Shown here: piece after piece, positions 1-57,692 of the stretch | Numbering within the stretch: the first letter of the stretch is position 1 | How the letters are laid out: each line of letters begins with the position of its first letter | The notes under the pieces: generated by a model | The model's database searches: none | The model's input: only the letters and a program-made list of their open reading frames with translations | What the model was told of the DNA's origin: nothing | Program-made: the position numbers and the translations under genes | Assembly (NCBI GenBank): GCA_963764035.1 | Contig: CAVXQV010000011.1 | Span: 105,042 to 169,041 of the forward strand | Direction of reading: 5' to 3' | DNA from: an uncultured Verrucomicrobiae bacterium | GTDB lineage: Bacteria; Verrucomicrobiota; Verrucomicrobiia; Limisphaerales; UBA11358 | Length of the DNA stretch: 64,000 nt

Positions 1-2198
1 TTGCGTCACGCACCAGGCCGCGCCGCAGTTCATCTTCGAGCTGCTCGACGACACGGTGCGGCTGCGGCTGCTGGCGAAAAGCCAGCGCGACCAGAGCACC
101 TGGTTTTGGAACGGCCACGAATGGTCGCCGCACGACCGCGTCATCAAGCCCGGCGACAAGCCGGAAATCCTCGACGACCCGCGGCTGGATCCGGCGGTTC
201 AGTGGCTGCGCAAGCTGGACTGGTTCATGCAGGAGCCCGGCCTGTGGATCGGCGACGCGAATGAAAATTTCCTCGGCACGCTCGCCGAGGCGCGTGGGCC
301 GGCGACGCCCGACGGAGGCGGAATTTCTCGGCAACCCGGCGTTTCACCGGCTGTTCCTCACGCCGCGCCAGCTCAAGCCGCGGCTCGTCGTCAAGGGCAG
401 CGGCATTGACTGGCTGGCCGTCTCCGCCGAATGGGAGGCGGAGGGACTGAAGCTCACCAAGGCGGACTTGGAACGGCTCGCCGCCGCGACCAGCCGCTTC
501 GTCAAGCTGCCGAACTCCGGCTGGGTGGAACTGGACACCAACGCCGTCCAGGGCGCGCACGAGGCGATGGCCGAGATGGGCGTGGACGGCCTCATCGCCG
601 TGCCGCAGAAGGTCGGGCATGGAGCACGTCGCGCACCTGGACGAGGACGAATTGAAGCGGTTCGCCGATTCGCCCGAGGCGAAGGCATTGCGCGAGCGCG
701 TCGCCGAATTTCAAGGGCGTTCCGTCCGTCGAATTGCCCAAGGGCTTGCAGGCCGAGTTGCGCCCGTATCAAAAGGACGGGTTCGATTTCCTCTGCCACC
801 TCACGCACATCCGGCTCGGCGGCATTCTCGCCGACGACATGGGCCTCGGCAAAACGCTCCAGACGCTCGCGTGGCTGGCGTGGCTCAAGGAGCAGAACAA
901 GAAAGACCACAAGCCGTCGCTCGTCATCTGCCCGGCGTCCGTGCTGCACAACTGGCGGCGCGAGGCCGAACGGTTCACGCCGGACCTGAAGGTGCTCGTG
1001 CTCGAAAGCGGCGCGGCGCGGCACAATTTGCGCAAGCAGATTCCGCAGAACGACATCATCGTGACCAATTACGCGCTGCTCCGGCGCGACCTGGAGGAGC
1101 TGCAGAAATTCGCCTTCCGCGCGGTGATTCTGGACGAGGCGCAGTTCATCAAGAACCCCGGCGCGCAGGTGACGCGCTCGGTCAAGCAGGTCAAATCCGA
1201 GCACCGGCTGGCGCTCACCGGCACGCCGCTGGAAAACCGGCTGCTCGATTTGTGGAGCATCGTGGATTTCATCCAGCCGGGCTACCTCGGCAACCAGGAC
1301 CAGTTTGCCGAGACCTACGAACCGCGCGCGCAGGCGGCCGATGAAACCGCGCCGAGTCGCACCGCTCGAAACGCGCGGCGAGAAGACCGAATCCGTCCAG
1401 CGCATCGCGCGCAAGCGGCTTTCGGCCAAATTGCGCCCGCTGCTGCTGCGCCGGTTGAAGAAGCACGTCGCGAAGGATTTGCCCGACCGCATCGAGGAGC
1501 GCCTCGACTGCCCGCTCGGCGACGAGCAGCGCAAATTGTATCTGGCCGAACTGCGCCGCAGCCGCGACCAGGTGATGAAGGTGGTCGAGACGCAGGGCAT
1601 CAACAAGAGCAAGATGCACGTGCTGGCCGCGCTCACGCGCCTGCGCCAGATTTGCTGCCATCCGTCGCTCGTCGGCAGCGACACCGCCTCCGGCAAGACC
1701 GAGACGCTGTTCGAATTGCTCGACCCGCTGGTGGCCGACGGCCAGAAGGTTCTGGTGTTCAGCCAGTTCGTCCAGATGCTGCAACTGCTGGAAAAGGAAT
1801 GCGCGACGCGGAACATCCACACGCACGTGCTCACCGGCCAGACCAAGGACCGGCAGCAGGTCGTCAGCGAATTCCAGGCCGACACCAAGCCCGGCGTGTT
1901 CCTGTTGAGCCTGCGCGCGGCGGGCACCGGCTTGAACCTGACGAACGCCAGCTACGTGGTGCTTTACGACCCGTGGTGGAACCCGGCGGTGGAGGCGCAG
2001 GCCATTGACCGCTCGCACCGCATCGGCCAGACCCAGACCGTGAACGCCTACCGCCTCATCGCGCCCGGCACCGTCGAGGAAAAGATCTGGGAACTGCAGC
2101 AGAGCAAGGCGCAGACGATTGCCGACGTGCTGGGCGAGGAAGGCTTTGCCCGCAGCCTCACCGCCACGGATTTGGAATATTTGTTCGCGGAGGATTGA
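1..2198 (+). CDS. SNF2/RapA-family helicase; 5' end lies outside the window; reading frame broken about 4 times in this sequence
   Basis: ORF 734..2008 carries motif I ILADDMGLGKTLQ, DEAQ box ILDEAQFIKN and LALTGTPLENRL. ORF 1305..2198 carries the helicase-C lobe (KVLVFSQF, LSLRAAGTGLNLT, YDPWWNPAVEAQAIDRSHRIGQ). The N-terminal part continues through the frames of ORFs 56..409, 261..989 and 619..1344. Frame switches lie near 300, 617 (GGG run), 708 (TTT run) and ~1320. Confidence 0.85.
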
Positions 2199-2320
2199 AC
2201 CGTCGGGATTTGTAGCGGCGCTCTGTGAGCATCGTCCCCGGCGGTCATGGACCGCCGCTGCAAACCTGCCGCCTTTGGCCGCGTGATTTTTCTTTCCCGG
2301 CAGATGGCCACAGCCTTCGA

Positions 2321-2602
2321 CCGTGCCACCGGACCTTTCAGCCGTGCATTCCGGCCGGCCGCGCGCACATTCGAAGCCTCCGGGCATACATCCGGGAGAT
2401 CCGCAGGCATCCCCGGACCATCCGGGCGCACCTACGGAAGTTCCGGATGGACCAACGGATCATTCGGCCATACCTACGGAACGTCCGGGCGCACCTACGG
2501 AACGCCCGGCCACACCAACGGACCGTCCGTCCATGCCTACGGAAGCTCCGGACACACCGACGGAGCGTTCGGAGGTGCCTACGGACCATCCGGAGGTGCG
2601 GG
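2321..2602. repeat. Degenerate tandem array R1, unit exactly 21 bp, about 13 units
   Basis: Consensus CCGGRCRCACCTACGGAASNT. The ACGG of successive units sits at 2434, 2455, 2476, 2497, 2518, 2539, 2560 and 2581. The array is open in at least 5 of 6 frames (ORFs 2225..2662, 2247..2669, 2323..2718, 2338..2712-, 2460..2648-), so no frame stands out as coding. Confidence 0.85.
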
Positions 2603-2706
2603 TTTTTGGCCAAAACAGGCCGAAAACAGCGAAAAACACGCCTTCCAACGCCCGGACCGTAGGAATTGATGAATTGGGCGCAAGTTGCCCGGCTGGGGCG
2701 GGTTCC

Positions 2707-2820
2707 GGCCACGGTTAAAGGCCAAACATCAAACTTGACCTTGCCCGCCGGTGGACGAATGCTGATGGCATGAAATGGAAAGCAACCCGTTTGCCTTCGC
2801 CAACGCCTGAAACCAAGACA
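2707..2820 (+). promoter_or_regulatory. Conserved 114-nt leader element (copy 1 of 2) with a sigma70-like promoter TTGACC-N17-AATGCT reading into the cassette
   Basis: Its first ~85 nt are about 90% identical to the reverse complement of 52028..52141. The -35 TTGACC is at 2735..2740, followed by a 17-nt spacer and the -10-like AATGCT at 2758..2763. Promoter activity is inferred from sequence only. Confidence 0.35.
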
Positions 2821-3330
2821 CAGGATAGGCTGAATATAGCGCCGTCCATGATCTGTTAGGCATCATCACACGTTTATGCGCTATCTCGTCACTATTTTAT
2901 TTGTGCTGGTAGTTCTCGTCGCCTGTTCACGCAAGTCGGATATTTCCCAGCGCGACCCGCAACGTGAGCAGCGTGATATTCTTCTTCATGCGCAATCGGA
3001 GGCTTTGCAGGCCAAGATTGTCCTGACCCAGTTGCACGACGGACACCTTACCAATGCGCTGGAGCTTTTGGAGATGCAGATAGACACATCGGTTATTATG
3101 ATTGACCATTCTTTGCCGAGCCTTTCCGGCGCACAGCGTGACGAGGCTTTGGGCACGCTACGGCTGCTTAAAGCGTATCGAGAGGCACACCCGCGACAGC
3201 AGGAGGCAGTTATTCCGGATGCCGACAAGGAAGACGCAGCGGCACTGATCCAAGCAAGCCAAAAGGCGTCCCAAATTTTGAGCGATTTGAAATGAACCTG
3301 ATGCCTAATATGAGAATAGGCTGAACGGCT
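2821..3330 (+). mobile_element. Integron-cassette-like unit C1: one ORF between attC-like left and right elements
   Basis: Left element 2821..2864 is CAGGATAGGCTGAATATAGCGCCGTCCATGATCTGTTAGGCATC. Right element 3300..3330 is GATGCCTAATATGAGAATAGGCTGAACGGCT. The 9-nt ends TTAGGCATC/GATGCCTAA are perfect inverted repeats. ATAGGCTGAA is a direct repeat at 2825..2834 and 3316..3325. Both elements recur at 50411..52027 and 57265..57692. Confidence 0.55.
2876..3295 (+). CDS. Hypothetical lipoprotein (cassette ORF, 139 aa)
   Basis: The ATG lies 14 nt after GTTAGGC. The N-terminus MRYLVTILFVLVVLVACSRK has a signal peptide and lipobox Cys. GC is visibly lower than in the neighbours. I do not recognise a family. 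Confidence 0.7.
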   Translation: MRYLVTILFVLVVLVACSRKSDISQRDPQREQRDILLHAQSEALQAKIVLTQLHDGHLTNALELLEMQIDTSVIMIDHSLPSLSGAQRDEALGTLRLLKAYREAHPRQQEAVIPDADKEDAAALIQASQKASQILSDLK

Positions 3331-3349
3331 TGATCCGCCCTCCGCGCAT

Positions 3350-3490
3350 TTATTCATAGCGCAGGGATTCACCCGGGTCGAGGTTTGCACCTTCCACGCG
3401 GGATTGGTTCCAAAGACAATTCCCACGACGGAACACAGCACCAGCCCCGGCACAATCCCGTCCACCGGGTTGGCGGAGGCGCACACCCGG
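3350..3490 (-). pseudogene. Relic of a MacB/FtsX-type permease C-terminus
   Basis: The reverse strand reads [38 protein letters not shown] with one frame slip. This matches the end of the permease at 49149 ([37 protein letters not shown]). No upstream continuation is present. Confidence 0.7.
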
Positions 3491-3545
3491 ATCCCGAAGT
3501 TGCTGGGAGCGAGTAGCGGTGGCGCCTCGTCACCGTAGGGTGGCT

Positions 3546-3640
3546 GCGACGCCCTCGTCGCATGATTCACTGTGTGGGAAGCCGCTGATTCGACCGGCGA
3601 CGAGGGCGTCGCCAACACAGTTCTGCGACGGGGCGTCGCA
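3546..3640. repeat. Three REP-like hairpins of one family (GCGACG-N4-CGTCGC)
   Basis: GCGACGCCCTCGTCGC at 3546..3561, GGCGACGAGGGCGTCGCC at 3596..3613, TGCGACGGGGCGTCGCA at 3624..3640. Confidence 0.7.
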
Positions 3641-3678
3641 GCTACCTGCATTCCGTTCGGAATTCGGATTGAATCCGC

Positions 3679-5057
3679 CTATTGCAACCGCTGCGGCATC
3701 TGGAAAATGCCATCGTAAAGCTGCGCGAGCGTGCCGCCGGTGTGACGGCTGCGCAAATCCTGGTCGAACGCAAACGTCGCGGCGGCGGCGAAGCCGTGCA
3801 GCGTCAGGCAGTAGGTGTTGTTGACCATGATGCCCAGCAGTTCGCCGGTGCGGCTGAACACCAGGTCGCCGCGCGAGGGATTGAATTTGCCGAACAGCCC
3901 CTTCAACAGGCTGCGGTCCAGCTTCAGGTATTGCGGCGTGTTCAACTCGATTTGGAAATTGCATTCGCCGTAATAGCCCTCGTTCGCGCCGACGAGCACG
4001 GCGTCCTGGAATTTGTAGGGATCGGACGACAGGCGGTAAACGTGGCAGCCGAGTTTGCGCGCGTCCGCGTCCGTCACCGGCATCATCACGACGCGCGGAT
4101 CCTGCGCGTGAAAGGTCAGCGACCGAATCGGCACCTGCATGACGCCCCACGTGAGCGAGCCGGTGAATTTGTCCCAGTCCGTGCCCGGGTCCCACAGCGT
4201 GAGCGGGGTGTCGGCCACGTGGCAGAGGGCAAAGGTGTTGGTCCCGTCGGTGGCGAGCACGGTTTCGGTGGTTTTGTCCTTCGCCGTGTCCTCGCTGAAG
4301 AAGCCGGTGCGCGCGGCCACGATCGCCGCCGCGACGCGGTTGGAAACGAAGTCGCTGAAGATGGTGTTCGGCGCGAGCGGGGTGTTCGCGCGGATTTCCT
4401 GGGTCAACTGGGTGGAATTGGTCGCGAGCGTTTTGAAGCCCTCGGCGAGCTTGGCGTTTTCGGCGTGCGCGGCCTGGGCTTCCTGCGACAGGAGGGCGGC
4501 CTTGTCGTTCGCGGCCCGCGCTTCGACCTCCGCCACCTGCAATTGGTTGGCCAATTTGTCCTTCTCGGCCTGCGCCAACTGGTTGCTCTTGGTCAAGTCG
4601 TCGAGCTGGCGGCGCAAGCGCCTCGGCCAGGTTGGACGCCTTTTGGGCCTCGGTTTCCGCCGCCGTGAATTTCTGCTGCGCCTGTTCGGACTGCGCGGAG
4701 CTGGTTTGCAACTGAAGCTTGAGATTCTCCAGGTTCGTTTGCGCGGTGGCGACCTGTTGTTGCAGGCGCGAATTCTCCTGTTCGCGCTGGCTCAAGTGCC
4801 GACTGCTGCTGCCCCGCCGATTCGCGCGCGACGGCCAGTTGCTGCTGCAACTGGGTCGTGCTCCGGCGCTCCTCTTCGAGCGCGAGCTTCATCGCGGCGG
4901 CCAGGTCGCTGCCGGGATTCGGAACGACGTTGGTGGCGATGACGATTTTCGTCGGCGGCCGGGTGTTTTCATCCGCCATGTGGTTGATGTCCGTCGAGAA
5001 CGTCAACAGGCTCAACAGCAGAAAGTCGCAGATGACGATGAGGATGCTGCGGTTCAT
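3679..5057 (-). CDS. Membrane-anchored coiled-coil protein with a MotB/ExbD/TolR-like TM-Asp helix; frame broken twice
   Basis: The N-terminal TM helix has an embedded Asp (MNRSILIVICDFLLLSLLTF). About 180 aa of Q/A/E-rich coiled coil follow (ORFs 4593..5057 and 3530..4795). The C-terminal ~230-aa globular domain is in ORF 3679..4617. Frame switches lie near 4800 and 4620. The ATG at 5057 sits in an ATGA overlap with a possible stop of the upstream gene. Confidence 0.6.
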
Positions 5058-6766
5058 GACAAGGCGGGTGGGCGGCGGCGTAGGTCTCGGCGTTCTGCGA
5101 CTCGGCTTCGAGCAGCAGCTTCCGGCGCGTCGGGCGCAGGTGGAAGATTTTGAAGATGACGACGAAGATGATGCCGAACGACGTGGAGGAATAGGCCGCC
5201 ATGAGGCTGAATTTCACCAGCCCCAGCGAGGCGATGATCAGCGACACGATGGTGCCCACGAAGCCGAGATAAAGCCCGGCGTCGAACAGGTGGTCTTCAT
5301 TTTCCAGCAGCTTGAGCTTCATGCGCGGCGGCACATTTTGACGGCGGATTTCCGCCAGTTTCACGAGGCACGAAATGTAGAGCAGCGCCTGCAGCACGAA
5401 GAACACAAGCAGCGTCAACACGATGGTGGGGTTCCAGGTATTTGGGTTCATAACGGTTTGTTTGAGGCCGGCGAATCCCGCGGGGACCGTCCCGCCCGTC
5501 GTGGGCAGGATCAGTCGAAGGGAAAAACTTCCCTTCTGGCTTTCCTGGGCGAGAAACGGCTCGCTCAAGAGCAACACCACCAGCAGAAACGCCAGCGAAA
5601 ATAAAAATTCGCGCGCGAGGTGAACCCCGCGCACTTGCAAGCGGACGCTCCAACGGCGAAACGGCGGGCCGCGCGCAATGCAGCGCCGCCGCGGCAAAAA
5701 AGCCGGCGAGCAGATATAGGAACCACTTTCCCGCCAGCGCCAGCCACGGATTTTGAACCGCAACTCCCGCCGCGTAATAATAAAACGCGCCGAACGGATT
5801 GAACGCCGCCACCCGGCGCTCGACCGGCGGATCGTAAAATTGCTGCTGCCGCTTCGCCAGTTCGGCCACGCCGCCCGCGCCGTAACGCAGGCTCGCGCCG
5901 AGATTGGACAGGCCGGTGTCCTTGAACTTCGCGAGATAATCCGCCACGTCCGCCGGCCGGCCCGAAAGCTGAACGGCGGCAAAGAGCACGGGCAGTTTGG
6001 CGTCGGCGGCGCGGGCGTCGTCCGCGAGCCGGTGCAGCGTGCCGGCGTCGGGAATGTCCGCGACAAATGCCGTCAATTGGTCCCAGTTGAACCGCTCGCC
6101 CAGCGACAGGAAATCCATCAGCGACTGTTCCAACGGTTCGGAGCCGGAGCCGCGATTGGCTTGCGACGCCAAGTCGGAAATGTCCCGGCTCAAGCCCGCC
6201 GGCAGATGGTTGCCGTCCAAAAGCAGGCCGCCAATGCAAACCGCGGTGTCGAAGGACTGGCCGGCCGCCGACGATGAGGGCGGGAACAGGCTGGTGTCCT
6301 TGAGCGACCGGGTGCGCAACAATTCCTGGACCGACTGCACCGTCGAGCCTTGCAAATGCGCCAGCGCCGCCTCGCGGTTGCCCTGGCGGATGATGAAATC
6401 GGCGAGGGGGGAATCTGGTGCGGCCAGCGCGGATTCGTTGCCGAAAAGCCCCGCCACGCGCCCGTCGTCGCCCCAAGCCAGCGCCGCCGGATTTTGCCGC
6501 GCCAAATTTGTGATGGTGTCCGCCAGCCGGTCCCAGGCGGGCATGCCCGCCGCGCGGGCGGCCTGCACGAGCATTTGCGCCACGCCCAATTTCCGCTCGC
6601 CCGCCAGCATTTGGCCATGGCCCAGCAACGATGGGCCGTTGGCGCCCGCCCGCTTCAGGACGCCGGCGTCCACCGCCCGCAGATGCATGGGCACGAGCAG
6701 GCCGCAGACCAGCAGCGCCAGTCCAAGGACGGCGCAAATAACGAATGCCAGCCACCGGAAGTTCAT
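5054..6766 (-). CDS. Polytopic membrane protein with a MotA/TolQ/ExbB-like C-terminal channel region; frame broken at least once
   Basis: The ATG at 6766 is preceded by AAGGAG. An N-terminal TM helix (WLAFVICAVLGLALLVCGLLV) is followed by a ~380-aa soluble region and several TM helices. LYLGFVGTIVSLIIASLGL...SSTSFGIIFVVIF resembles the MotA/ExbB signature, judged by eye only. The frame switches near 5620 (ORF 5297..6847 to ORF 4969..6066). The 3' end at 5054 assumes a further slip around 5060-5100. Confidence 0.5.
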
Positions 6767-6880
6767 GGTTTGCTCCTTGAAACTTTTGACTGCGCCAGGC
6801 CAATGGCCGTTCAAAATCCGTTTTGAAACAGAACGCCGCCGGGGCACCCAGCGACCTGTCCCCGGCGGAATGACCCCGAA

Positions 6881-21594: not shown

Positions 21595-21850
21595 GAGCAC
21601 ACTCTTTCGCCGTTCGAGCGCGCTCTTTTCGCGTGGGAGCATGCTCCCGCGCCGTTCGCGTGCGCTCCCACCGCGTTGGAGCGTGCTCTATCGCCGCGGG
21701 AGCACACGCCTGCGGCGTGGGCGTGCGCTCTTTTCCCGTGGGCGCATGCTCTTTTCCAAAAAGAGCACACTCTTTTCCCGTTGGAGCGCGCTCTTTTTCC
21801 GTTCGAGCATGCTCTTTTCCCGTTGGAGCATGCTCTTTTTCCGAAAGAGG
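21595..21850. repeat. Degenerate tandem array R2, unit exactly 21 bp, 12-13 units
   Basis: Consensus GGAGCRYGCTCTTTTCCCGTT, containing the 10-bp palindromes GAGCATGCTC and GAGCGCGCTC. GAGC or its variants sit at 21595 + 21n for n=0..12, with no indel. All three + frames and two - frames are open. Confidence 0.88.
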
Positions 21851-22065
21851 AGGCGATTTTGGGCGCTTTTTGCCGGCTTTCACGGCTTGAATACGCTAGA
21901 ACAAGTTTATTTTCAACGAGTTACGCTGTAGTGGTCAAAAATAGCCACTTTTTGGGGGTGCCGGGCGGGCGTTCCGATGCCACCCGCCCGCCCCGGCGAA
22001 AGGGACGCCTTTGGAAGGGCGCATATCAAAAAAAAGCCATTTGCCGCCGGGCGTTCAAGCGCGCT

Positions 22066-28892: not shown

Positions 28893-29098
28893 CCCTCGCC
28901 CCGCCCAAGCGGGGAGAGGGTCAGGGTGAGAATTCTCCGAACCCCATTTCGCGCTTTGAACCCCTGCAACCTCAAGATGCGCAAGTCGCTGATAATCAAG
29001 TTGGCGATCTTGAGGTTCATGGGGAGGGGATTTCATTTTTCAATTGAAATCAGCGCCACCTCACCCCAGCCCTCTCCCCCGCTTCGCGGCGGAGAGGG
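28893..29098. repeat. Composite REP-like element with two CCCTC(T/G)CC...GGAGAGGG hairpins, copy 1 of 2
   Basis: Hairpins at 28893..28920 and 29070..29098, joined by ...TTTTCAATTGAAATCAGCGCCACCTCACCCC. The same arrangement occurs inverted at 42525..42635. CATAATCCCAAAGAAATG occurs twice nearby, around 28850 and 29140. Confidence 0.75.
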
Positions 29099-29211
29099 AG
29101 GATTTCCGCGTATCATCTTAATTTTACGTCAACGACATAATCCCAAAGAAATGCCATTTTTGCCATTTTCCAGCTAAATCACCTGTTTTCAGCCAGTTCC
29201 AGCGGTTTTTG

Positions 29212-29484
29212 GATGTCGCAAAATCATTTTGGGACATCCCCCCGGAGTTTTGGGACATCGCAAAGCCAGCTCGTGACATCCCATCGTCGTTTCGCGACGT
29301 CGCACCCCTGGCTTGGGACATCCCAAAACCGCGGTGAGACATCGCGAAATCCTGGCGCGACATCCCGCCGGCGTCTCGGGACATCGCAAAGTTGGCGGGT
29401 CAGATCCCGGCGTCGTTCCGCGACATCGCACCCTTGGCCTGGGATATCGCAGGGCCGCTTTGGGACATCGCCGCCTGGTTTCCT
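29212..29484. repeat. Degenerate tandem array R3, 21-bp phase with 42-bp and 126-bp higher order, 13 units
   Basis: GACATC or variants sit at 29212 + 21n for n=0..12. Units mostly alternate GACATCCC and GACATCGC. Units 2-7 resemble units 8-13 pairwise. The array ends 95 nt before the kinase start. Confidence 0.88.
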
Positions 29485-39154: not shown

Positions 39155-39625
39155 AGGATGAGGGCGGGCGTAAAACACAAAATGATTTGGTTGCAACGAC
39201 CGTCCTCACCCCGGCCCTCTCCTCCGAGGAGAGGGTGGAACTGCCGCCGCCGCCCTGACAATCCACGCGCCGGATTTGCCGGATGGCCAACTGCATCACC
39301 GGAAACGCCCGCAGGCTGTTCCTTCTCCCTGGGGGAGAAGGTCAGGATGAGGGCGGGCGTAAATCACAAAACAATTCAGTTTTAACGACCGTCCTCACCC
39401 CGGCCCTCTCCTCCGAGGAGAGGGTGGAACTGCCGCCGCCGCCCTGACAAGCCATGCGCCGGATTTGCCGGATGGCCAACCGCATCACCGGAAACGCCCA
39501 CAGGCTGTTCCTTCTCCCCGAGGGAGAAGGTCAGGATGAGGGCGGGCGTAAACCACAAACCAATTCAGTTTTAACGACCGTCCTCACCCCGGCCCTCTCC
39601 TCCGAGGAGAGGGAGCACCCGCCCG
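39155..39625. repeat. Tandem repeat, 189-bp unit, about 2.5 copies, each unit carrying two REP-like hairpins
   Basis: AGGATGAGGGCGGGCG starts at 39155, 39344 and 39533. Each unit contains the hairpins CCTTCTCC-N5-GGAGAAGG and CCCTCTCC-N6-GAGAGGG. Confidence 0.9.
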
Positions 39626-40533: not shown

Positions 40534-40900
40534 TCAAGTGGCTGTCAACTAACCGGTTGCCGGGTATGGCAGTGGGCAAGTTGAATTCAACTGACGGTCT
40601 GCCATGTATGGGAGGGGGCAAGTTGAATTCAACTGACGGTCTGCCATGTATGGGAGGGGGCAAGCTGGATTCAACTGATGGGTTGCCATGTATGGGAGGG
40701 GGCAAGTTGGATTCAACTAACGGTCTGCCATGTATGGAGGGGGCAGTGGATCAACTGATGGGTTGCCATGTATGCAGGGGCGAGTTGGATTCAACTGACG
40801 GTCTGCCATACATGGCAGGGGGCCAGTTGAATTCAGCCAACGCCCTTGGCGGTGTCAAGGGAGGGGGGTTGAGACCGGCTGGCGTGCCGGGCGACGGCGG
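40534..40900. repeat. Tandem array R4, 42-bp unit (2 x 21), about 9 units, decaying at both ends
   Basis: Unit GGCAAGTTGAATTCAACTGACGGTCTGCCATGTATGGGAGGG, with the palindrome GTTGAATTCAAC and the near-palindrome CCATGTATGG. GAATTC/GGATTC sits at 40583, 40625, 40667 and 40709. Later units carry small indels. Confidence 0.88.
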
Positions 40901-42465: not shown

Positions 42466-42524
42466 GGCTTCTGGAATTGGGACTACTTCGTTGACACAAA
42501 TTTACCAATGACATTCGCAAACTT

Positions 42525-42635
42525 CTCCCTCTCCGCCGCGAAGCGGGGGAGAGGGCCGGGGTGAGGTGGCGCTGATTTCAATGGAAAAAGAATTGCCCCT
42601 CACCCTGACCCTCTCCCCGTCCGACGGGGAGAGGG
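42525..42635. repeat. Composite REP-like two-hairpin element, copy 2 (inverted relative to 28893..29098)
   Basis: CTCCCTCTCCGCCGCGAAGCGGGGGAGAGGG ... GGCGCTGATTTCAATGGAAAAAGAATTGCCCCTCACCC ... CCCTCTCCCCGTCCGACGGGGAGAGGG. Confidence 0.75.
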
Positions 42636-47876: not shown

Positions 47877-49149
47877 ATGCATCTGCGGCCAACCATCGTC
47901 CTGCTGCTCGGCGAAATCCGCGGAAAGCATTTCGATGGCCTTGAACGCGATCATCGGCGCACAAGCTGCGCTCCGCGCTCACGCTGCTCGGCGTGTTGAT
48001 CGGCGTGTTTTCCATCATCGTCGTGATGACCGCCATGCGCGTGCTGGAGCGGAACATCGAAGACCAACTTGAGCCAGTTGGGCAGCCAGACGTTTGCCAT
48101 CCAGAAATGTCCGGCAGGTCCAGTTCGGCAACAGTTCCGATTGGGAAAAATACTGGCGGCGCAAGAACATCACGCTCGAACAGGGCGCAAGCGGTCGCGG
48201 AAAAGGCCACGCTCGCCGCCGCCGTCGGCGTCGAAGGCACTTTCTGGGGCGGCCAGATCTCAGACCCGCTACGCCAAGACCGCGCCCAACGTCCAGTTGC
48301 TCGGCGACACGCCCGGCAGTTTCCCGGCGCACAACTGGATCATTGACGAGGGCCGCCTTTTTGACGACAGCGACGTGGACAACGCCCGCAGCGTTTGCGT
48401 GCTGGGCAGCGCGCTGGCCAAAACGGTTTTTCCCTTCGGCTCCGCCCTCGGCGAGCAACTCAAAATCAACGGCATCAATTACGCCGTCGTCGGCGTGCTC
48501 GCGCCCAAGGGCGGCTCGGTCGGCGGCAACCAGGACAACTTCGCCGTCGTCCCGCTCACCACGGCGCTCCACCGCTACGGACTGCGCTGGAACGGATTGA
48601 GCATTCTGGTCCAGGCGCGCAGCTCCGCCGTCTACGCCGATTGCGAGGAACAGGTGCGCGGCATCCTGCGCGACGCCCGCAAGGTCCGGCCCGGCGACCC
48701 GGACGATTTTGAACTGTATCTCCAACGACTCGCTGATCGAACAATTCAAGACCTTCACCCGCGCCGTGCGCATCGGCGTGGCGGTGGTCAGCTCCATCGC
48801 GCTGCTCGCGGCGGGCGTCGGCATCATGAACATCATGCTCGTCTCGGTCACGGAACGGACGCGGGAAATCGGCGTCCGCCGCGCCATCGGCGCCAAGCGG
48901 CGGAACATCATGGCGCAATTCATCATGGAAGCCGTCGTGCTGTGCGAAGTCGGCGGCGTCATCGGCGTCGTGCTCGGCATTCTGGGCGGCAACGTCCTCG
49001 CCTGGTTCATGAAAGTCCCGCCCGCCATCCCGGTGGACTGGATTGTGCTCGGGCTGGTGCTGTGCTCCGTCGTGGGCATTGTCTTCGGCACCTATCCCGC
49101 GTGGAAGGCGGCGAACCTCGACCCGATTGAATCCCTGCGCTACGAATAA
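47877..49149 (+). CDS. MacB/FtsX-family ABC permease 2; frame broken at least 5 times
   Basis: Motifs: KLRSALTLLGVLIGVFSIIVVMTAM; LKINGINYAVVGVLAPKG; [38 protein letters not shown]...GTYPAWKAANLDPIESLRYE*. Confidence 0.82.
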
Positions 49150-49151
49150 AG

Positions 49152-50239
49152 ATGGCCGGGCCTAAAAACAGCGGCTACCTGCGGCAATTGGATGGTTTGC
49201 GCGCCTTGTCCGTCGCGGCCGTCGCCTGGAGCCATTGGCGCGCCTATTGGTTCCGGGAATCCTCCGTGCCCTGGGCGGAATTTGGCGTTGAAACCTTTTT
49301 CGTCATCAGCGGCTTTTTAATCACGGGCATCCTCCTGGACAACCGTTCAGAATCATCGAAGCCCTTTGTCCTGCGGCAATTTTACGCGCGCCGGTTCCTC
49401 CGAATTTTTCCGCTGTTCTACGCGACCCTTGTGATCGGGTTCGTTCTGCGCGCCGACAGCCTGCGTCAAACGTTGTTTTGGCACGCCGGTTATTTGTCCA
49501 ACATCTATTTTTACCTTTGGGGCTGGTGCGGGCAATTGAGCCATTTCTGGTCGCTGGCGGTGGAGGAACAATTCTACCTGTTCTGGCCGCTCCTGATGAT
49601 TTTCCTGCCCAAACGCTTTTTGCTGCCGGCGATCCTGGCCGGCATCGGATTCGCCCCCTGTTTGAAACCGCCATGGATTCGTTTTATCCGGGGCATTCAG
49701 CGCAGGTGTCGGCCAGCGTTTTGATGCCCAGTTGCATGGACGCCCTGGGCATGGGCGCCTTGCTCGCTTACGGCATCAGAAACCAATTTCCCATGAAACG
49801 CCTGGCCTTGATCCTTCTACCGGTTGGAATCGCCGGCTACGCCTTGTGCAATCATTTCGGCGCGTGCAAAGCGGCCGGACGGCTGGCGGAAGATTGCGTC
49901 TTGGGCTGGCTGGTTTATTCCGCCGCCCAAGGTTTTCGCGGACCGTTCGGATGGTTTCTGGAATGTGCGCCGATGAACTATCTGGGCAAAATCAGCTACG
50001 GCCTGTATGTCATACACAATTTCGCCGTCTCCATTTGCACGTCCTTGATACTTCGATTGGGAAGCCCCGATTGGCTGGTCAGACTTTACAACATCCCCGT
50101 GGTGCGAATCCTGGCATTCACCGGCGTGACCGTGGGACTGGCCGCTTATTCATGGCATCGGTTTGAAAAGCCGATCAACAATCTGAAACGCAAATTCCCA
50201 TACCCCGTTGCTGCGGCAACGCCTTCGCCCGGGCCTTGA
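49152..50239 (+). CDS. Acyltransferase family 3 (OafA/YrhL-like) membrane protein; one frame break near 49660
   Basis: Motifs: LDGLRALSVAAVAWSH, FFVISGFLITGIL, HFWSLAVEEQFYLFWP, GKISYGLYVIHNF. The pieces lie in ORFs 49152..49724 and 49478..50239. It starts 2 nt after the permease stop. Confidence 0.82.
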
Positions 50240-50251
50240 AACTGCCGCGCA

Positions 50252-50376
50252 CCATTCCGTCGGACAGGATTGCGCTGGGGCTGGGGCTGTGCTCCCTCGT
50301 GGGCATTGTCTTCGGCACCTACCCCGCTTGGAAGGCTGCGAACCTCGACCCGATTGAATCCCTGCGCTACGAATAA
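50252..50376 (+). pseudogene. Duplicated 3' end of the MacB/FtsX permease gene (about 90% identical to 49025..49149)
   Basis: It reads ...IALGLGLCSLVGIVFGTYPAWKAANLDPIESLRYE* and has no upstream gene body. It forms a direct repeat bracketing the acyltransferase gene. Confidence 0.85.
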
Positions 50377-50459
50377 ATTCGCGGGGAAGGATTGAATGCA
50401 AAGGAGATTGAGCCGTTCAGCCTATTCTCATATTAGGCAGCGCATATGGCTGCGCTGCG

Positions 50460-51029
50460 TCAATCTCTTGGTAGCAGCCCCAAATGCTTCTCAATAATAC
50501 TGGTCGTAATTTCATCCGAATAGTTTGGACATAACTCATATGATCTCTTCAAACTGTAAGACCTCTTGTCAAGTAATGAGTAATCGAATGTCTCCATGTC
50601 CTCAATCCGATCCCCGTTCCGAAACTCTCGCAGCAATGTGGGACTCGAAATCACGCCGTTTCCGCCATCGTAGTAACTGCCATCCGGCAGTTTGCTCAAA
50701 ACGTGATCACAAATCCCATTGGTTGTCATGATAAACGCGATGCAGACCTTATCATTGAACTTCTCGTTCCACTCTTCGTAAAACAGCTTGGCAAAACGAC
50801 CACAAGGCCCCCGGTCAATTCGTGGCCACCCATCCACATATCCGTAGGTCAAATTGATTTCGTCCCTCAATCCATTCAGCACGGCCACCTGCTGATAGCT
50901 TAATCCTCTTGCTGGAGCAGTTTTATAAACAGGTAGTTGCCGGCAAGAGCATAGAGAGAAAACCAGCGTCATGATTATCAGAAACTTTTGCCAAGGTCGC
51001 AGCATCGTTAATTTGGTTTGTTTCATCAC
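50460..51029 (-). CDS. Hypothetical lipoprotein (cassette ORF, 189 aa)
   Basis: Signal peptide and lipobox (LIIMTLVFSLCSCRQ). Markedly lower GC. Followed by the hairpin GCAGCGCA-N6-TGCGCTGC. Confidence 0.7.
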   Translation of the reverse strand: MMKQTKLTMLRPWQKFLIIMTLVFSLCSCRQLPVYKTAPARGLSYQQVAVLNGLRDEINLTYGYVDGWPRIDRGPCGRFAKLFYEEWNEKFNDKVCIAFIMTTNGICDHVLSKLPDGSYYDGGNGVISSPTLLREFRNGDRIEDMETFDYSLLDKRSYSLKRSYELCPNYSDEITTSIIEKHLGLLPRD

Positions 51030-51054
51030 ACCGGCGCGGTGTTAGGCGACGAAA

Positions 51055-51915
51055 TCATTTCGAAACATCAAAGCTGGTGACCAAGCCATATCGAACCTCA
51101 CGATAACCGTTGCGCATCCTAGATGACTTGATGAATCGCTCTACAGCCGCGTCCAGCCAGCGTTGATCCGATGCGGTGATGAGAGTTCCACCGCTCGAGT
51201 GTATAATTACATAACCTGAATACATAAATGGATGGAAAGAGCGTGTCTCCAACCAAACACAACCGGCAGGAGGGTTGGTTTGCATTTCTGTGAGAGGAAA
51301 ACCAAATGCCTTCGCTAACTTCTCTGCCGCCTCACGGTGTGCTTTCGAAGCGTCTTGAGGTATTCCAATGTTTGGGCAGATACGATGCCACAGTAGAACG
51401 TCTGCGTAGGAACTTCCTAAATTCTCGATGAAATTATCAGCAACAACACGTTGAGGAGCGTTGGAAGCAACCAGCCGATCCCTCGCGGTCAGCAATGCCG
51501 CCCTGTCTTGCGTCAAAAAGGCTTTCATCGCCGCAACATTATCGTTCCAATTCGCTCCTAGATCAGAGGTTTTGTCGTAGCATATTGCCTGATCCAATTG
51601 TTCCACCGCCAGCGTGTTCCTGCCCGCCACTGCATACAATTGCGCCTCATGGAAGTGAAGAAACTTTTGCTGAGAAACCGTTAATTCCGGGTGCGCTTTT
51701 AGGTAATCACGAATCAGAACCGCAGCCTCAAAATACCGCCCACTGTCGTAAAGCACACGAAACCCAGAGCCATAAGTCTGATCAAAGTCACTGTAAGAAA
51801 GCGAAAGCATGGCTGTTCGTTCTCGGCTTTCTTGAGTCGCGCAACCTCCAACAAGTATGCTGAAGATCACAAGAACCAGTGACGTTACTACCGCTGATTG
51901 GATGAAACGACTCAT
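51055..51915 (-). CDS. Hypothetical lipoprotein (cassette ORF, 286 aa)
   Basis: Signal peptide and lipobox (LVLVIFSILVGGCATQ). Lower GC. I do not recognise a family. Confidence 0.7.
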   Translation of the reverse strand: MSRFIQSAVVTSLVLVIFSILVGGCATQESRERTAMLSLSYSDFDQTYGSGFRVLYDSGRYFEAAVLIRDYLKAHPELTVSQQKFLHFHEAQLYAVAGRNTLAVEQLDQAICYDKTSDLGANWNDNVAAMKAFLTQDRAALLTARDRLVASNAPQRVVADNFIENLGSSYADVLLWHRICPNIGIPQDASKAHREAAEKLAKAFGFPLTEMQTNPPAGCVWLETRSFHPFMYSGYVIIHSSGGTLITASDQRWLDAAVERFIKSSRMRNGYREVRYGLVTSFDVSK

Positions 51916-52027
51916 ATCACCTCATAGACACCGACCACACAGTGTTTTGTATAACTATTTTTATTGTGCTTGGTCCCGACATCGCAGCCTAACAGAACGT
52001 GGGCGGTGCCGTATTCAGCCCATCCTG

Positions 52028-52141
52028 TTTCATGGCTTTGAGTGTTAGCGGAAGCAAACGGGTTGCATTCCATTTCATGGCGTCAGCATTCGTCCACTGG
52101 CGGGCAAGGTCAAGTTCGATGTTTGGCCTTCAGCCGTGGCC
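52028..52141 (-). promoter_or_regulatory. Conserved leader element (copy 2) with TTGACC-N17-AATGCT reading into cassette unit C2
   Basis: Its reverse complement aligns with 2707..2820. The -35 is at 52113..52108 and the -10-like hexamer at 52090..52085, both on the minus strand. Confidence 0.35.
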
Positions 52142-52342
52142 GTCACGGTCATTTGATGCCGAAGCGTTTTTTGACTTCGGCATGGGTGAGGCGCGGTTTG
52201 CCTTCGTCGCGCACGCGCGCTTCGGTCAGGTCCGGATAACCGAATCCACGCCTGTCCTGCGCAAGCCGGCTCGCGCCGCGTGGCTGGCAACTGCATGGAA
52301 CCGGTTTAATCCGTCCCTCCGTGATTGAACCGCGGCTTTTAG

Positions 52343-57264: not shown

Positions 57265-57692
57265 TTGCAGCCTATCCTTATATTAGACGCCCCCCGTTCT
57301 TCCGCTGGGGTCCACGAACGGAAATCTTTTCCGTAGGTCGTCCAAAGATGAGACGTGGCGACTCGACACCAAGCTGGTAGCTTCAGCTAGCGCGACACCG
57401 ATAGGATCAACACTTGGATCAGGAGCGCAGTTACGACGCAGAGTGAATGTTTCCGCACCGCGCTTGAGACCGAGCCAGCGCCTCGGGCTTGGTGTAACAA
57501 TGGGTTCCAGCCATACTCCGTCGGCGTCGTAAAACACAATGACTCCTGACTCAACGTCACGAGAGTAGGAACCCCATTCCCGAAGAAGCTGGTCCTCGTC
57601 TTCGAACAGTCTCACTTCGCCGTATTCAAGAACGCCGATGATCATCTTTTAGCGTCTAACTGATAATGGTCAGCATGATATTCCGTCTATCC
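57265..57692 (-). mobile_element. Integron-cassette-like unit C3: one ORF between attC-like left and right elements
   Basis: On the minus strand, the left element 57692..57651 reads GGATAGACGGAATATCATGCTGACCATTATCAGTTAGACGCT, 29/41 identical to 2821..2861. The right element 57290..57265 reads GCGTCTAATATAAGGATAGGCTGCAA. The 9-nt ends TTAGACGCT/AGCGTCTAA are perfect inverted repeats and differ from those of C1 in a compensating way. Confidence 0.5.
57283..57645 (-). CDS. Hypothetical protein (cassette ORF, 120 aa)
   Basis: The ATG lies 8 nt after GTTAGAC+GCT. The TAA stop lies inside the GTCTAAT box. GC is lower than the flanks. I do not recognise a family. Confidence 0.6.
   Translation of the reverse strand: MIIGVLEYGEVRLFEDEDQLLREWGSYSRDVESGVIVFYDADGVWLEPIVTPSPRRWLGLKRGAETFTLRRNCAPDPSVDPIGVALAEATSLVSSRHVSSLDDLRKRFPFVDPSGRTGGV

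Follow-up and report, generated by a model that had tools for sequence, protein, structure and literature searches.

Probable orphan integron modules with single, attC-less gene cassettes in an uncultured bacterium of the Limisphaerales (Verrucomicrobiae)

Introduction

Which system places unrelated genes between the same pair of short elements at three sites of one bacterial contig? This question is raised by a stretch of 64,000 nt (in the following "the window") from an uncultured Verrucomicrobiae bacterium (Limisphaerales; UBA11358; assembly GCA_963764035.1, contig CAVXQV010000011.1, positions 105,042-169,041). As stated in the original prediction and directly visible in the sequence, an open reading frame (ORF) at 2876-3295 lies between a left element (L) and a right element (R). 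The same elements recur in the same relative order, as had also been noted, around unrelated ORFs at 50406-52030 and 57265-57692, both on the opposite strand. We term L..ORF(s)..R a unit, refer to the three units of the window as loci 1, 2 and 3 and denote related loci by numbers of the type L013. Integrons are the main bacterial gene-capture system and are found computationally via attC hairpins and the integrase gene intI. Loci 1, 2 and 3 are very probably orphan integron modules, each composed of an attI-type site, a captured promoterless cassette and a distal array end, and we speak of orphans because neither an integrase gene nor a complete attC is present in the window.

Results

The left element is an attI-type site

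Locus 1 is composed of the following features:

2706..2822 (+): leader, common to locus 2 at 85% identity, with promoter-like hexamers inside
2770..2859 (+): upstream open reading frame (uORF) of 29 codons (MKWKATRLPSPTPETKTQDRLNIAPSMIC) that crosses the attI-type site; its TAG stop at 2857-2859 makes up positions 3-5 of the R box GTTAGGC
2821-2864 (+): whole left element ACAGGATAGGCTGAATATAGCGCCGTCCATGATCTGTTAGGCATC, read from the sequence
2823..2834 (+): direct-repeat box of the attI-type site, GGATAGGCTGAA, present in every L site of the family
2844..2861 (+): simple site of the attI type with L box GTCCATG, spacer ATCT and R box GTTAGGC; putative crossover at 2855/2856 (G|TT)
2856..3308 (+): gene cassette of 453 nt, from TTAGGC-ATCA to TGAT-GCCTAA, delimited by homology boundaries, covariation and GC content
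2876..3295 (+): ORF of the cassette, encoding a predicted lipoprotein of 139 aa whose signal peptide contains an LVAC lipobox; without Pfam family
3300-3328 (+): whole right element GATGCCTAATATGAGAATAGGCTGAACGG, read from the sequence
3303..3325 (+): array-end element R with R'' box GCCTAAT, spacer ATGAG and a copy of the direct-repeat box, AATAGGCTGAA; putative crossover GCCTAA|T at 3308|3309
3342..3476 (-): MacB/FtsX 3'-end relic that has lost 1 nt; flanking DNA common to locus 2 and outside the cassette system

The identity of the left element emerges from related loci. A tblastn search with IntI1 over the collected related loci led to L013 (46% identity, E 6e-78) and L055 (45%, E 1e-73; 337 aa) only. 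With 419 and 386 bits, respectively, both proteins score well above the cut-off of 265 bits for the NCBIfam integron integrase TIGR02249, and in both loci intI is situated directly upstream of the left element and oriented divergently. A metagenome scan with the IntI proteins of L013 and L055 provided a second sample of 80 further intI loci. Seven of the ten closest (at least 66% identity) share the site GGATAGGCTG-N22-GTTAGGC about 83 nt from the intI start codon, followed by attC sites, and two of the other three, L074 and L075, feature a variant of the site that is recognisable by eye. Genes for integron integrases are also found in L074-L082 and L123. In nine loci (L013, L055, L076-L081, L123), a site located about 84 nt from the start of intI is 80-87% identical, over 40-54 nt, to window positions 2823-2861.

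Throughout the family, attI comprises one or two direct-repeat boxes GGATAGGCTG (21 nt apart if doubled), an L box GTCCATT/GCCTACT, a 4-nt spacer and the R box GTTAGGC, and conservation is higher in L and R than in the leader around them. Because the same site adjoins a divergent intI in related loci, we regard the left element as the attI of this integron family, a Verrucomicrobial chromosomal integron family to which it is assigned by homology. The element had been read as one half of an attC before, a view that is not tenable given the order direct repeat, L box, R box of an attI-type site. In agreement with the original prediction that no recombinase is encoded in the window, tblastn with IntI1 or family IntI did not reveal any tyrosine recombinase there (best E 1.9; other recombinase classes were not screened).

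Cassettes and their boundaries

A scan for the exact pattern CTAATATRAGRATAGGCTG, conducted with one genome per species, retrieved 73 loci. About 65 of them stem from metagenome-assembled genomes (MAGs) of Limisphaerales/Verrucomicrobiae from peat, bog and soil, with two to six loci per genome, while eight matches in low-GC Firmicutes/Bacteroidales are attributed to chance because the flanking GC...CA is absent. Some family contigs (L012, L030, L045; L008, L038) are filed in MAGs labelled Bifidobacteriaceae / Candidatus Sulfotelmatobacter, and these labels are probably binning errors.

In 33 units, L is located 237-2519 nt upstream of R on the same strand. Without exception, the space in between is filled by ORFs directed from L to R, and their GC content is lower than that of the surrounding DNA. 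The cargo ORF starts 12-30 nt past GTTAGGC and stops about 10 nt ahead of GCCTAAT or, in about one third of the units, at the TAA of GCCTAAT itself. Some 45 cargo proteins taken from such units have practically no similarity to each other. It is thus variable, tightly packed ORFs that the elements bracket, as anticipated, and this sets them apart from a family of repetitive extragenic palindromes (REP). In the window, cargo GC is 0.48-0.52 as compared to 0.61 for the window as a whole (0.52 for the locus-1 cassette), and none of the four cargo ORFs belongs to a Pfam family.

The 3-6 nt beyond the constant TTAGGC are specific for each unit and complementary between its two ends. When the 5 nt beyond TTAGGC were compared in the 33 units from the window and related genomes, 125 of 165 positions matched, whereas shuffling the partners 10,000 times gave 73 ± 5 matches on average and 95 at most. 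The claim that the ends covary between units is thereby confirmed, and its extension to an integron-type cassette with R'/R''-like ends is borne out by the occurrence of the same left element beside intI and of the same boxes in related attC hairpins. The locus-1 ORF is an integron gene cassette with complementary ends of the TTRRRY/RYYYAAC type and variable, low-GC content.

The cassette boundaries can be located by comparison. Loci 1 and 2 share their leader and left element as a 156-nt repeat with 85% identity (2706-2861 versus 51987-52142); homology stops at 2861, the final base of GTTAGGC, and restarts at 3302 (TGCCTAAT). Cassettes have also been exchanged at orthologous platforms. One such platform is flanked by an ntrC-like gene and a convergent one. 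Its flanks, leader, attI and R are common to five species, the five cassettes are different, and conservation falls exactly at the GTTAGGC and GCCTAAT boxes. As homology breaks there in both comparisons, crossover is placed at G|TT and, in mirror image, at GCCTAA|T. The 10-bp direct repeat ATAGGCTGAA, which had been taken for a crossover core, does exist in loci 1 and 2 and is degenerate in locus 3 (ATAGACGGAA versus ATAGGCTGCAA). A crossover inside this repeat, corresponding to an attP x attB reaction, was rejected since homology breaks at the R boxes instead; what is repeated is the direct-repeat box of attI.

Complete integrons with a homogeneous attC

L013 is a complete integron. It contains intI (3009-4046, minus strand), attI, five cassettes and four 99-nt sites of the type GCCTAAC-AAnTC-...-GTTAGGC, and then ends with R. 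The same 99-nt attC family occurs in L012, L018, L022, L036, L054, L066, L078, L079 and L123. As single-stranded DNA the site adopts a long imperfect hairpin (-24 kcal/mol, z -4.3), and the consensus of 18 sequences features a 7-bp R box, an unpaired spacer and a bulged L stem with 25 pairs, seven of which show compensatory changes. A covariance model (R1) built from this 18-sequence alignment gave 39 strand-specific matches in the related loci with 30-122 bits. The family is, then, a chromosomal integron of Limisphaerales-type Verrucomicrobia, with intI divergent from attI and a homogeneous 99-nt attC. Next to more distant IntI proteins (50-58% identity), a crude search of the array ends for RYYYAAC...GTTRRRY yielded almost no attC sites.

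Units away from an integrase are common. Upstream sequence of at least 1.3 kb was available for 29 units, of which 27 lack intI, and one MAG combines the complete integron L013 with the orphans L001, L032 and L063. Unusual arrangements were also observed. In L057 (CAWHCL010000013.1, about 3650-5520), four complete attI-cassette-R modules are lined up in tandem, each with its own promoter region; the modules are separated by a terminator-like hairpin CCCCGAACCCTTTCGGGG, and one junction is a 106-nt fused R-attI site. In L008, L039 and others, some of the called ORFs extend across the 99-nt attC, with the peptide PNKSPEPT[AS]VGA..SA[IV]AVH in common, and therefore cause spurious similarity among cassette proteins.

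The right element ends every array

R closes every array or single cassette seen, including those linked to intI in L013 and L055, and about 65 copies of it were found in the genome scan. In it, the R'' box of the last cassette is joined via ATGAG to a copy of the attI direct-repeat box. In 31 of 33 units, attI and R have the same two nucleotides (CA or AA) past the direct-repeat box, which suggests that one protein may read the boxes of both. In the reverse complement of R, GCCTATC-CTCAT-A|TTAGGC, a word similar to an L box is followed by a 5-nt spacer and an R box. By inspection, 13-14 of 19-22 positions agree with the attI simple site. In L006, L011, L030 and L033, a conserved element of about 110 nt precedes R in place of the end of a cassette ORF. 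It begins near GCCTCCTAAG and holds the hairpin CCGCCTCCGAGGCGG; folding did not indicate any pairing with R in these four loci.

The locus-1 cassette occurs in other contexts

The protein encoded at locus 1 has 68 homologues with 40-90% identity in Verrucomicrobial (meta)genomes, and these reside in at least four genomic contexts. A look-up of the exact protein returned a 1.1-kb copy of the same sequence as the sole match. In L155-157, a homologue (78%) is found within long same-strand arrays of small ORFs with attC-like sites. In L158-160, a 77% homologue is part of an orphan attI-cassette-R unit between genes for a metallo-beta-lactamase-fold protein and a methyltransferase. The ends of the latter cassette are identical to those of locus 1 (GTTAGGCATCATCACACGTTTATG ... 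TGATGCCTAAT). While these untranslated ends are the same, 6 of 22 positions in the attI part are different between the window and L158. The same cassette family is therefore present both in arrays with full attC sites and in orphan modules that lack attC. When the window is compared with L155, a change on both sides, from T:A to G:C, is found at the second variable position of the end pairing. A further homologue (63%, L162) is decayed and lacks recognisable sites.

The surroundings of locus 1 vary as well. In the closest relative of a flanking gene (94%), contig P0069 (JGI 3300075153), a PIN toxin gene and an 81-aa partner occupy the locus-1 position, and genes of the Phage_integrase family and for Fic are located 3-4 kb upstream. 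Window positions 1-2199 (SNF2 helicase) and 3683-6767 are 83-87% identical to metagenome contig L164, and the 1.5-kb stretch between them (2200-3682), which in the window holds a 21-nt tandem array, leader, module, macB relic and a palindrome, is replaced there. Locus 1 is thus polymorphic as a block. Probably, it arose by duplication of a module resembling locus 2, followed by replacement of the cassette.

Leader and upstream open reading frame

The locus-1 leader contains the promoter-like hexamers TTGACC (2735-2740) and AATGCT (2758-2763) spaced by N17 and followed, after 6 nt, by an ATG at 2770. This geometry equals that of the intI-attI spacer in the family, where TGGACA-N17-TACAnT is followed after 6 nt by a conserved ATG or GTG. 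A promoter in the leader appears plausible from this likeness. The family uORF, MK[K/Q]DRL..PSIIC, has 14 codons (21 if the box is doubled), crosses attI and ends with the TAG inside GTTAGGC. Such a uORF with TAG stop was found at 31 attI sites with an ATG start, and further sites have GTG at this position. By analogy, the uORF is considered the counterpart of ORF-11 of attI1, and its translation is predicted. ORF-11 couples translation to cassettes without an initiation region of their own (PMC8876359, citing Hanau-Bercot 2002).

Loci 2 and 3 and further repeats in the window

The other two units, both on the minus strand, are organized as follows:

50406-52030 (-): locus 2, whole unit; the same two elements around unrelated ORFs
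50416..50438 (-): locus 2, array-end element R, found by pattern search and repeat alignment
50433..51992 (-): locus 2, two-ORF cassette, 51055-51915 (286 aa) and 50460-51029 (189 aa); GC 0.48, without Pfam match
51987..52142 (-): locus 2, attI-type site and leader; R box 51987-51993, direct-repeat box 52014-52025, uORF MKQDGLNTAPPTFC
57265..57288 (-): locus 3, array-end element R, GTCTAAT-ATAAG-GATAGGCTGCAA, from sequence reading and pattern search
57283..57659 (-): locus 3, cassette with ORF 57283-57645 (120 aa), the TAA of the R'' box being its stop codon; without Pfam match
57654..57692 (-): locus 3, degenerate attI-type site with R box GTTAGAC and direct-repeat box GGATAGACGG; uORF interrupted

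The family covariance model did not detect any attC between the two ORFs of locus 2. The 19-mer CTAATATGAGAATAGGCTG from the right element occurs three times in the window with at most two mismatches, as compared to none expected from 100 shuffles.

Relics of a MacB/FtsX 3' end follow the units at loci 1 and 2, as had been described, at 3342-3476 (minus strand) and 50213-50377 (plus strand), and an intact copy (Pfam FtsX) is present at 48986-49150. The final 165 nt of macB are thus repeated with 87% identity (48986-49150 and 50213-50377) around a gene of the Acyl_transf_3 family (49152-50239), which is broken into two overlapping frames, 49152-49724 and 49478-50239. As macB and the acyltransferase gene are also adjacent in a relative, the downstream copy of the macB end is the odd one. 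In their frameworks (leader, attI, R and macB relic; 2706-3476 versus 50213-52142), loci 1 and 2 are inverted repeats of about 0.3 kb in total around about 47 kb and therefore constitute a substrate for a large inversion. Gene order near these inverted repeats differs in relatives.

Further repeats in the window comprise an imperfect palindrome between the macB relic and the next gene (3513-3645; 49-nt arms, 76% complementary, 35-nt loop) and a 94-nt inverted repeat (29012-29105 / 42520-42613; 87% complementary, arms 13 kb apart) that is unrelated to the cassette elements. Tandem arrays have periods that are multiples of 21 nt: 2372-2602 (21), 21595-21856 (21), 40535-40864 (42), 29216-29467 (63) and 39155-39623 (189). 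The array at 2372-2602, which has the SNF2 gene directly on one side and the locus-1 leader on the other, would yield a proline/threonine-rich heptad on translation.

Discussion

How could single cassettes without attC come to lie between attI and R? An integrase encoded elsewhere in the genome may serve the orphan sites in trans, and R may constitute a second, inverted attI-like simple site. Recombination of attC with R would leave the last cassette without attC, and if it involved the strand opposite to that used at attI, the interior of the incoming attC would be placed upstream of the new last cassette. The outcome would be a full attC in all internal cassettes and a last cassette that ends in R, while an intramolecular event between attC and R would produce single cassettes without attC. 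We put forward with reserve that such a two-ended mechanism might account for every structure observed. No less tentative is the idea of a distributed two-ended integron, in which one integrase would operate on several scattered, promoter-equipped attI docking sites, every stored cassette would be expressed and an inverted R would close each array. Here, recombination of attC, probably as the top strand, with the distal R would strip the last cassette of its attC, and exchange would take place without full attC. The cassette would be transcribed from the leader promoter, and its translation may be aided by the uORF, which would start at the predicted transcript start and stop in the TAG of the R box, like ORF-11. 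Whether the orphan sites are presently active, with an integrase acting in trans, appears to us evenly balanced. Ongoing exchange would be expected to yield circular junctions of the type ...TGATGCCTAA + (C...G of an attC, or a TATGAG-type hybrid) + TTAGGCATCA....

Several observations weigh against the interpretation of the loci as orphan integron modules or against parts of it. The window does not contain a complete attC: the best score of the family model is 16.7 bits (E about 0.02), inside the SNF2 gene and below threshold, a result that the original prediction had named as the first part of a refutation; the second part, elements without variable ORFs between them, is contradicted by 33 of 33 units. 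Nor does the joined R and L of the window resemble the attC-like site proposed there, as it folds through the outer 10-bp stem only (dG -7.5 kcal/mol, z -1.8), and we rejected it as a minimal attC on account of this weak fold. The gene intI is absent from the window. Empty platforms, i.e. L followed by R within 120 nt, do not occur among the approximately 65 R sites, the matches being chance GTTAGGC-like words inside cassettes, and excision of the last cassette is therefore undocumented. The role suggested for R is drawn from sequence resemblance. Concerning the promoter-bearing leader, TTGACC-N17-AATGCT is present and the leader is repeated at locus 2 as claimed, but the site failed the sigma-70 consensus scan with a -10 hexamer matching at 3 of 6 positions, and the window leader is not similar to the intI-proximal leader of the family or to the leaders of other genomes. 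L164 has PadR and Wzz-like genes, and neither L nor R, in place of the stretch 2200-3682, and because the whole block is exchanged, locus 1 may have come within a larger duplicated segment and not by insertion of a cassette.

Some of these points would be well accommodated if the units were dead relics, that is duplicated or rearranged 5' ends of integrons that have lost intI and in which recombination is over, with L, R and the complementary ends merely inherited. Besides a window without intI and the absence of empty sites, the degenerate direct-repeat box and interrupted uORF of locus 3, the common flanks of loci 1 and 2 that resemble a segmental inverted duplication and the lack of the whole locus-1 region in an 85% relative point in this direction. 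We nevertheless consider such decay somewhat unlikely, because five species have five cassettes with sharp boundaries at both R boxes of one orthologous platform, because loci 1 and 2 enclose unrelated cargo despite an identity of 85-90% between their frameworks, and because conservation of L and R exceeding that of the leader, compensatory changes in the end pairing and an intact IntI in a MAG that also has orphan modules would not be expected. Alternatively, the whole attI-cassette-R module, with or without its flanks, could move or duplicate by homologous recombination, inversion or a further mechanism of unknown nature, without any exchange of single cassettes at orphan sites. The same cassette family with the same ends within its own L..R pair in L158-160, the presence or absence of locus 1 as a 1.5-kb block, the four tandem modules of L057 and the inclusion of non-integron flanks in the inverted repeats of loci 1 and 2 would all agree with this. 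As an exclusive mode it is unlikely, given that orthologous platforms with conserved leader, L and R harbor different cassettes, that window and L158 differ in attI while the untranslated ends of the cassette are identical, and that the cassette family also resides in classical arrays with attC.

A function of the complementary ends in RNA, where a 10-13 bp stem formed by the 5' and 3' untranslated ends would stabilize or process the mRNA and thereby maintain covariation, is very unlikely to be the explanation. Both arms are indeed inside the predicted transcript, covariation includes a change on both sides and the ORFs are always co-oriented with the leader. On the other hand, the constant parts of the arms are canonical R'/R'' boxes (GTTRRRY/RYYYAAC) shared with hairpin attC sites beside intI, the same extension of R'/R'' pairing by a few bases is found in ordinary attC-bounded cassettes of the family, and an Rfam gathering scan of the window was empty, so that a known RNA family was discarded. 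Roles in RNA and DNA are compatible and not mutually exclusive. The last possibility, which we regard as extremely improbable, is that L and R are dispersed repeats similar to REP, miniature inverted-repeat transposable elements (MITE) or insertion sequences (IS), or the inverted repeats of a phase-variable switch. It is true that the elements are short, dispersed, present in several copies per genome and arranged as inverted repeats around an ORF. Yet, neither naked L/R repeats without an intervening ORF nor a transposase were detected in the sample and L is physically linked to intI. A REP, MITE or IS200/IS605-like element was rejected for the lack of transposase, naked copies and subterminal hairpins, and an invertible segment because the orientation of the ORF to the leader was the same in all 33 units.

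If orphan modules of this kind are active, each captured gene would be kept beside its own promoter and would not be silent in a long array, and a class of cassette loci would be invisible to current tools. Should the two-ended model be true, the integron cassette pools of soil bacteria would be undercounted. The family offers substrates, namely L, R, the 99-nt attC and matching IntI, for testing an integrase on a distal attI-like site.

Comparison with known integron systems

A literature search for orphan or solo attI gave false word matches only and cannot settle whether such modules have already been described. Integrons in Verrucomicrobia have been reported by IntegronFinder (PMC4889954). 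The attI-type site of the window resembles attI1 of class 1 integrons in its design, with direct-repeat box(es) resembling the R box, an inverse L box, a 4-nt spacer and the R box GTTAGGC (PMC12901181), a divergent intI that in the relatives adjoins the site with a promoter in between, and a short ORF across the site that ends at the TAG of the R box, as does ORF-11 (PMC12901181, PMC8876359). Differences lie in the lack of sequence similarity past the R box, the lack of an adjacent integrase in the window, the presence of three copies in 64 kb and a uORF that appears to start at the transcript start and not behind a Shine-Dalgarno sequence. The attI design may be ancient since a defined attI with repeats, simple site, promoter and uORF is present in a phylum far from the clinical classes.

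Cassettes without a normal attC are known to be recombined by IntI1, namely those of the delta-attI type and attI1-ORF-attI1 (PMC12901181). In delta-attI-type and fused cassettes, attC is likewise missing or replaced by attI-derived sequence (Partridge 2009; PMC12901181; PMC8876359), and the two-ORF cassette of locus 2 resembles a fused cassette. In delta-attI cassettes, however, the ORF is followed by a directly oriented segment that comprises the final 8-12 nt of attI as far as G|TT, whereas R keeps the R'' box, followed by ATGAG and the copy of the direct-repeat box, and does not contain an L-spacer-G segment. Delta-attI cassettes are also sporadic, while the structure of R is conserved across a whole bacterial order.

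Related loci of the family share intI, attI, small unrelated low-GC ORFs and near-identical 99-nt attC sites with sedentary chromosomal integrons such as the VCR (Vibrio cholerae repeat) arrays of Vibrio, and the 99-nt attC is like theirs in its R''/L''/L'/R' boxes, unpaired spacer and bulged bases. Family arrays differ in that they end in R, which replaces the last attC, and in the many attC-less single-cassette units away from intI. CALIN (attC clusters without an integron integrase) are likewise cassette loci without a nearby integrase in genomes that may encode IntI elsewhere. By definition CALIN have at least two attC sites; the window has neither an integrase nor any attC, and its units possess an attI-type site and a putative promoter instead. 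As the units carry no attC, attC-based tools would miss them. In the pdif modules of Acinetobacter plasmids, genes are bracketed by inverted XerC/XerD sites in many contexts; recombinase family and site structure are different, and the likeness is one of analogy only. What is unusual about the Limisphaerales system is its architecture, in which attC-less single cassettes reside between an orphan copy of attI and a conserved array end at several places of the chromosome. Three features of the family fall outside the standard picture of the integron: the defined attI in a phylum remote from the clinical classes, the array-closing element, and the attC-less single cassettes at orphan attI sites, which differ between species at one and the same site.

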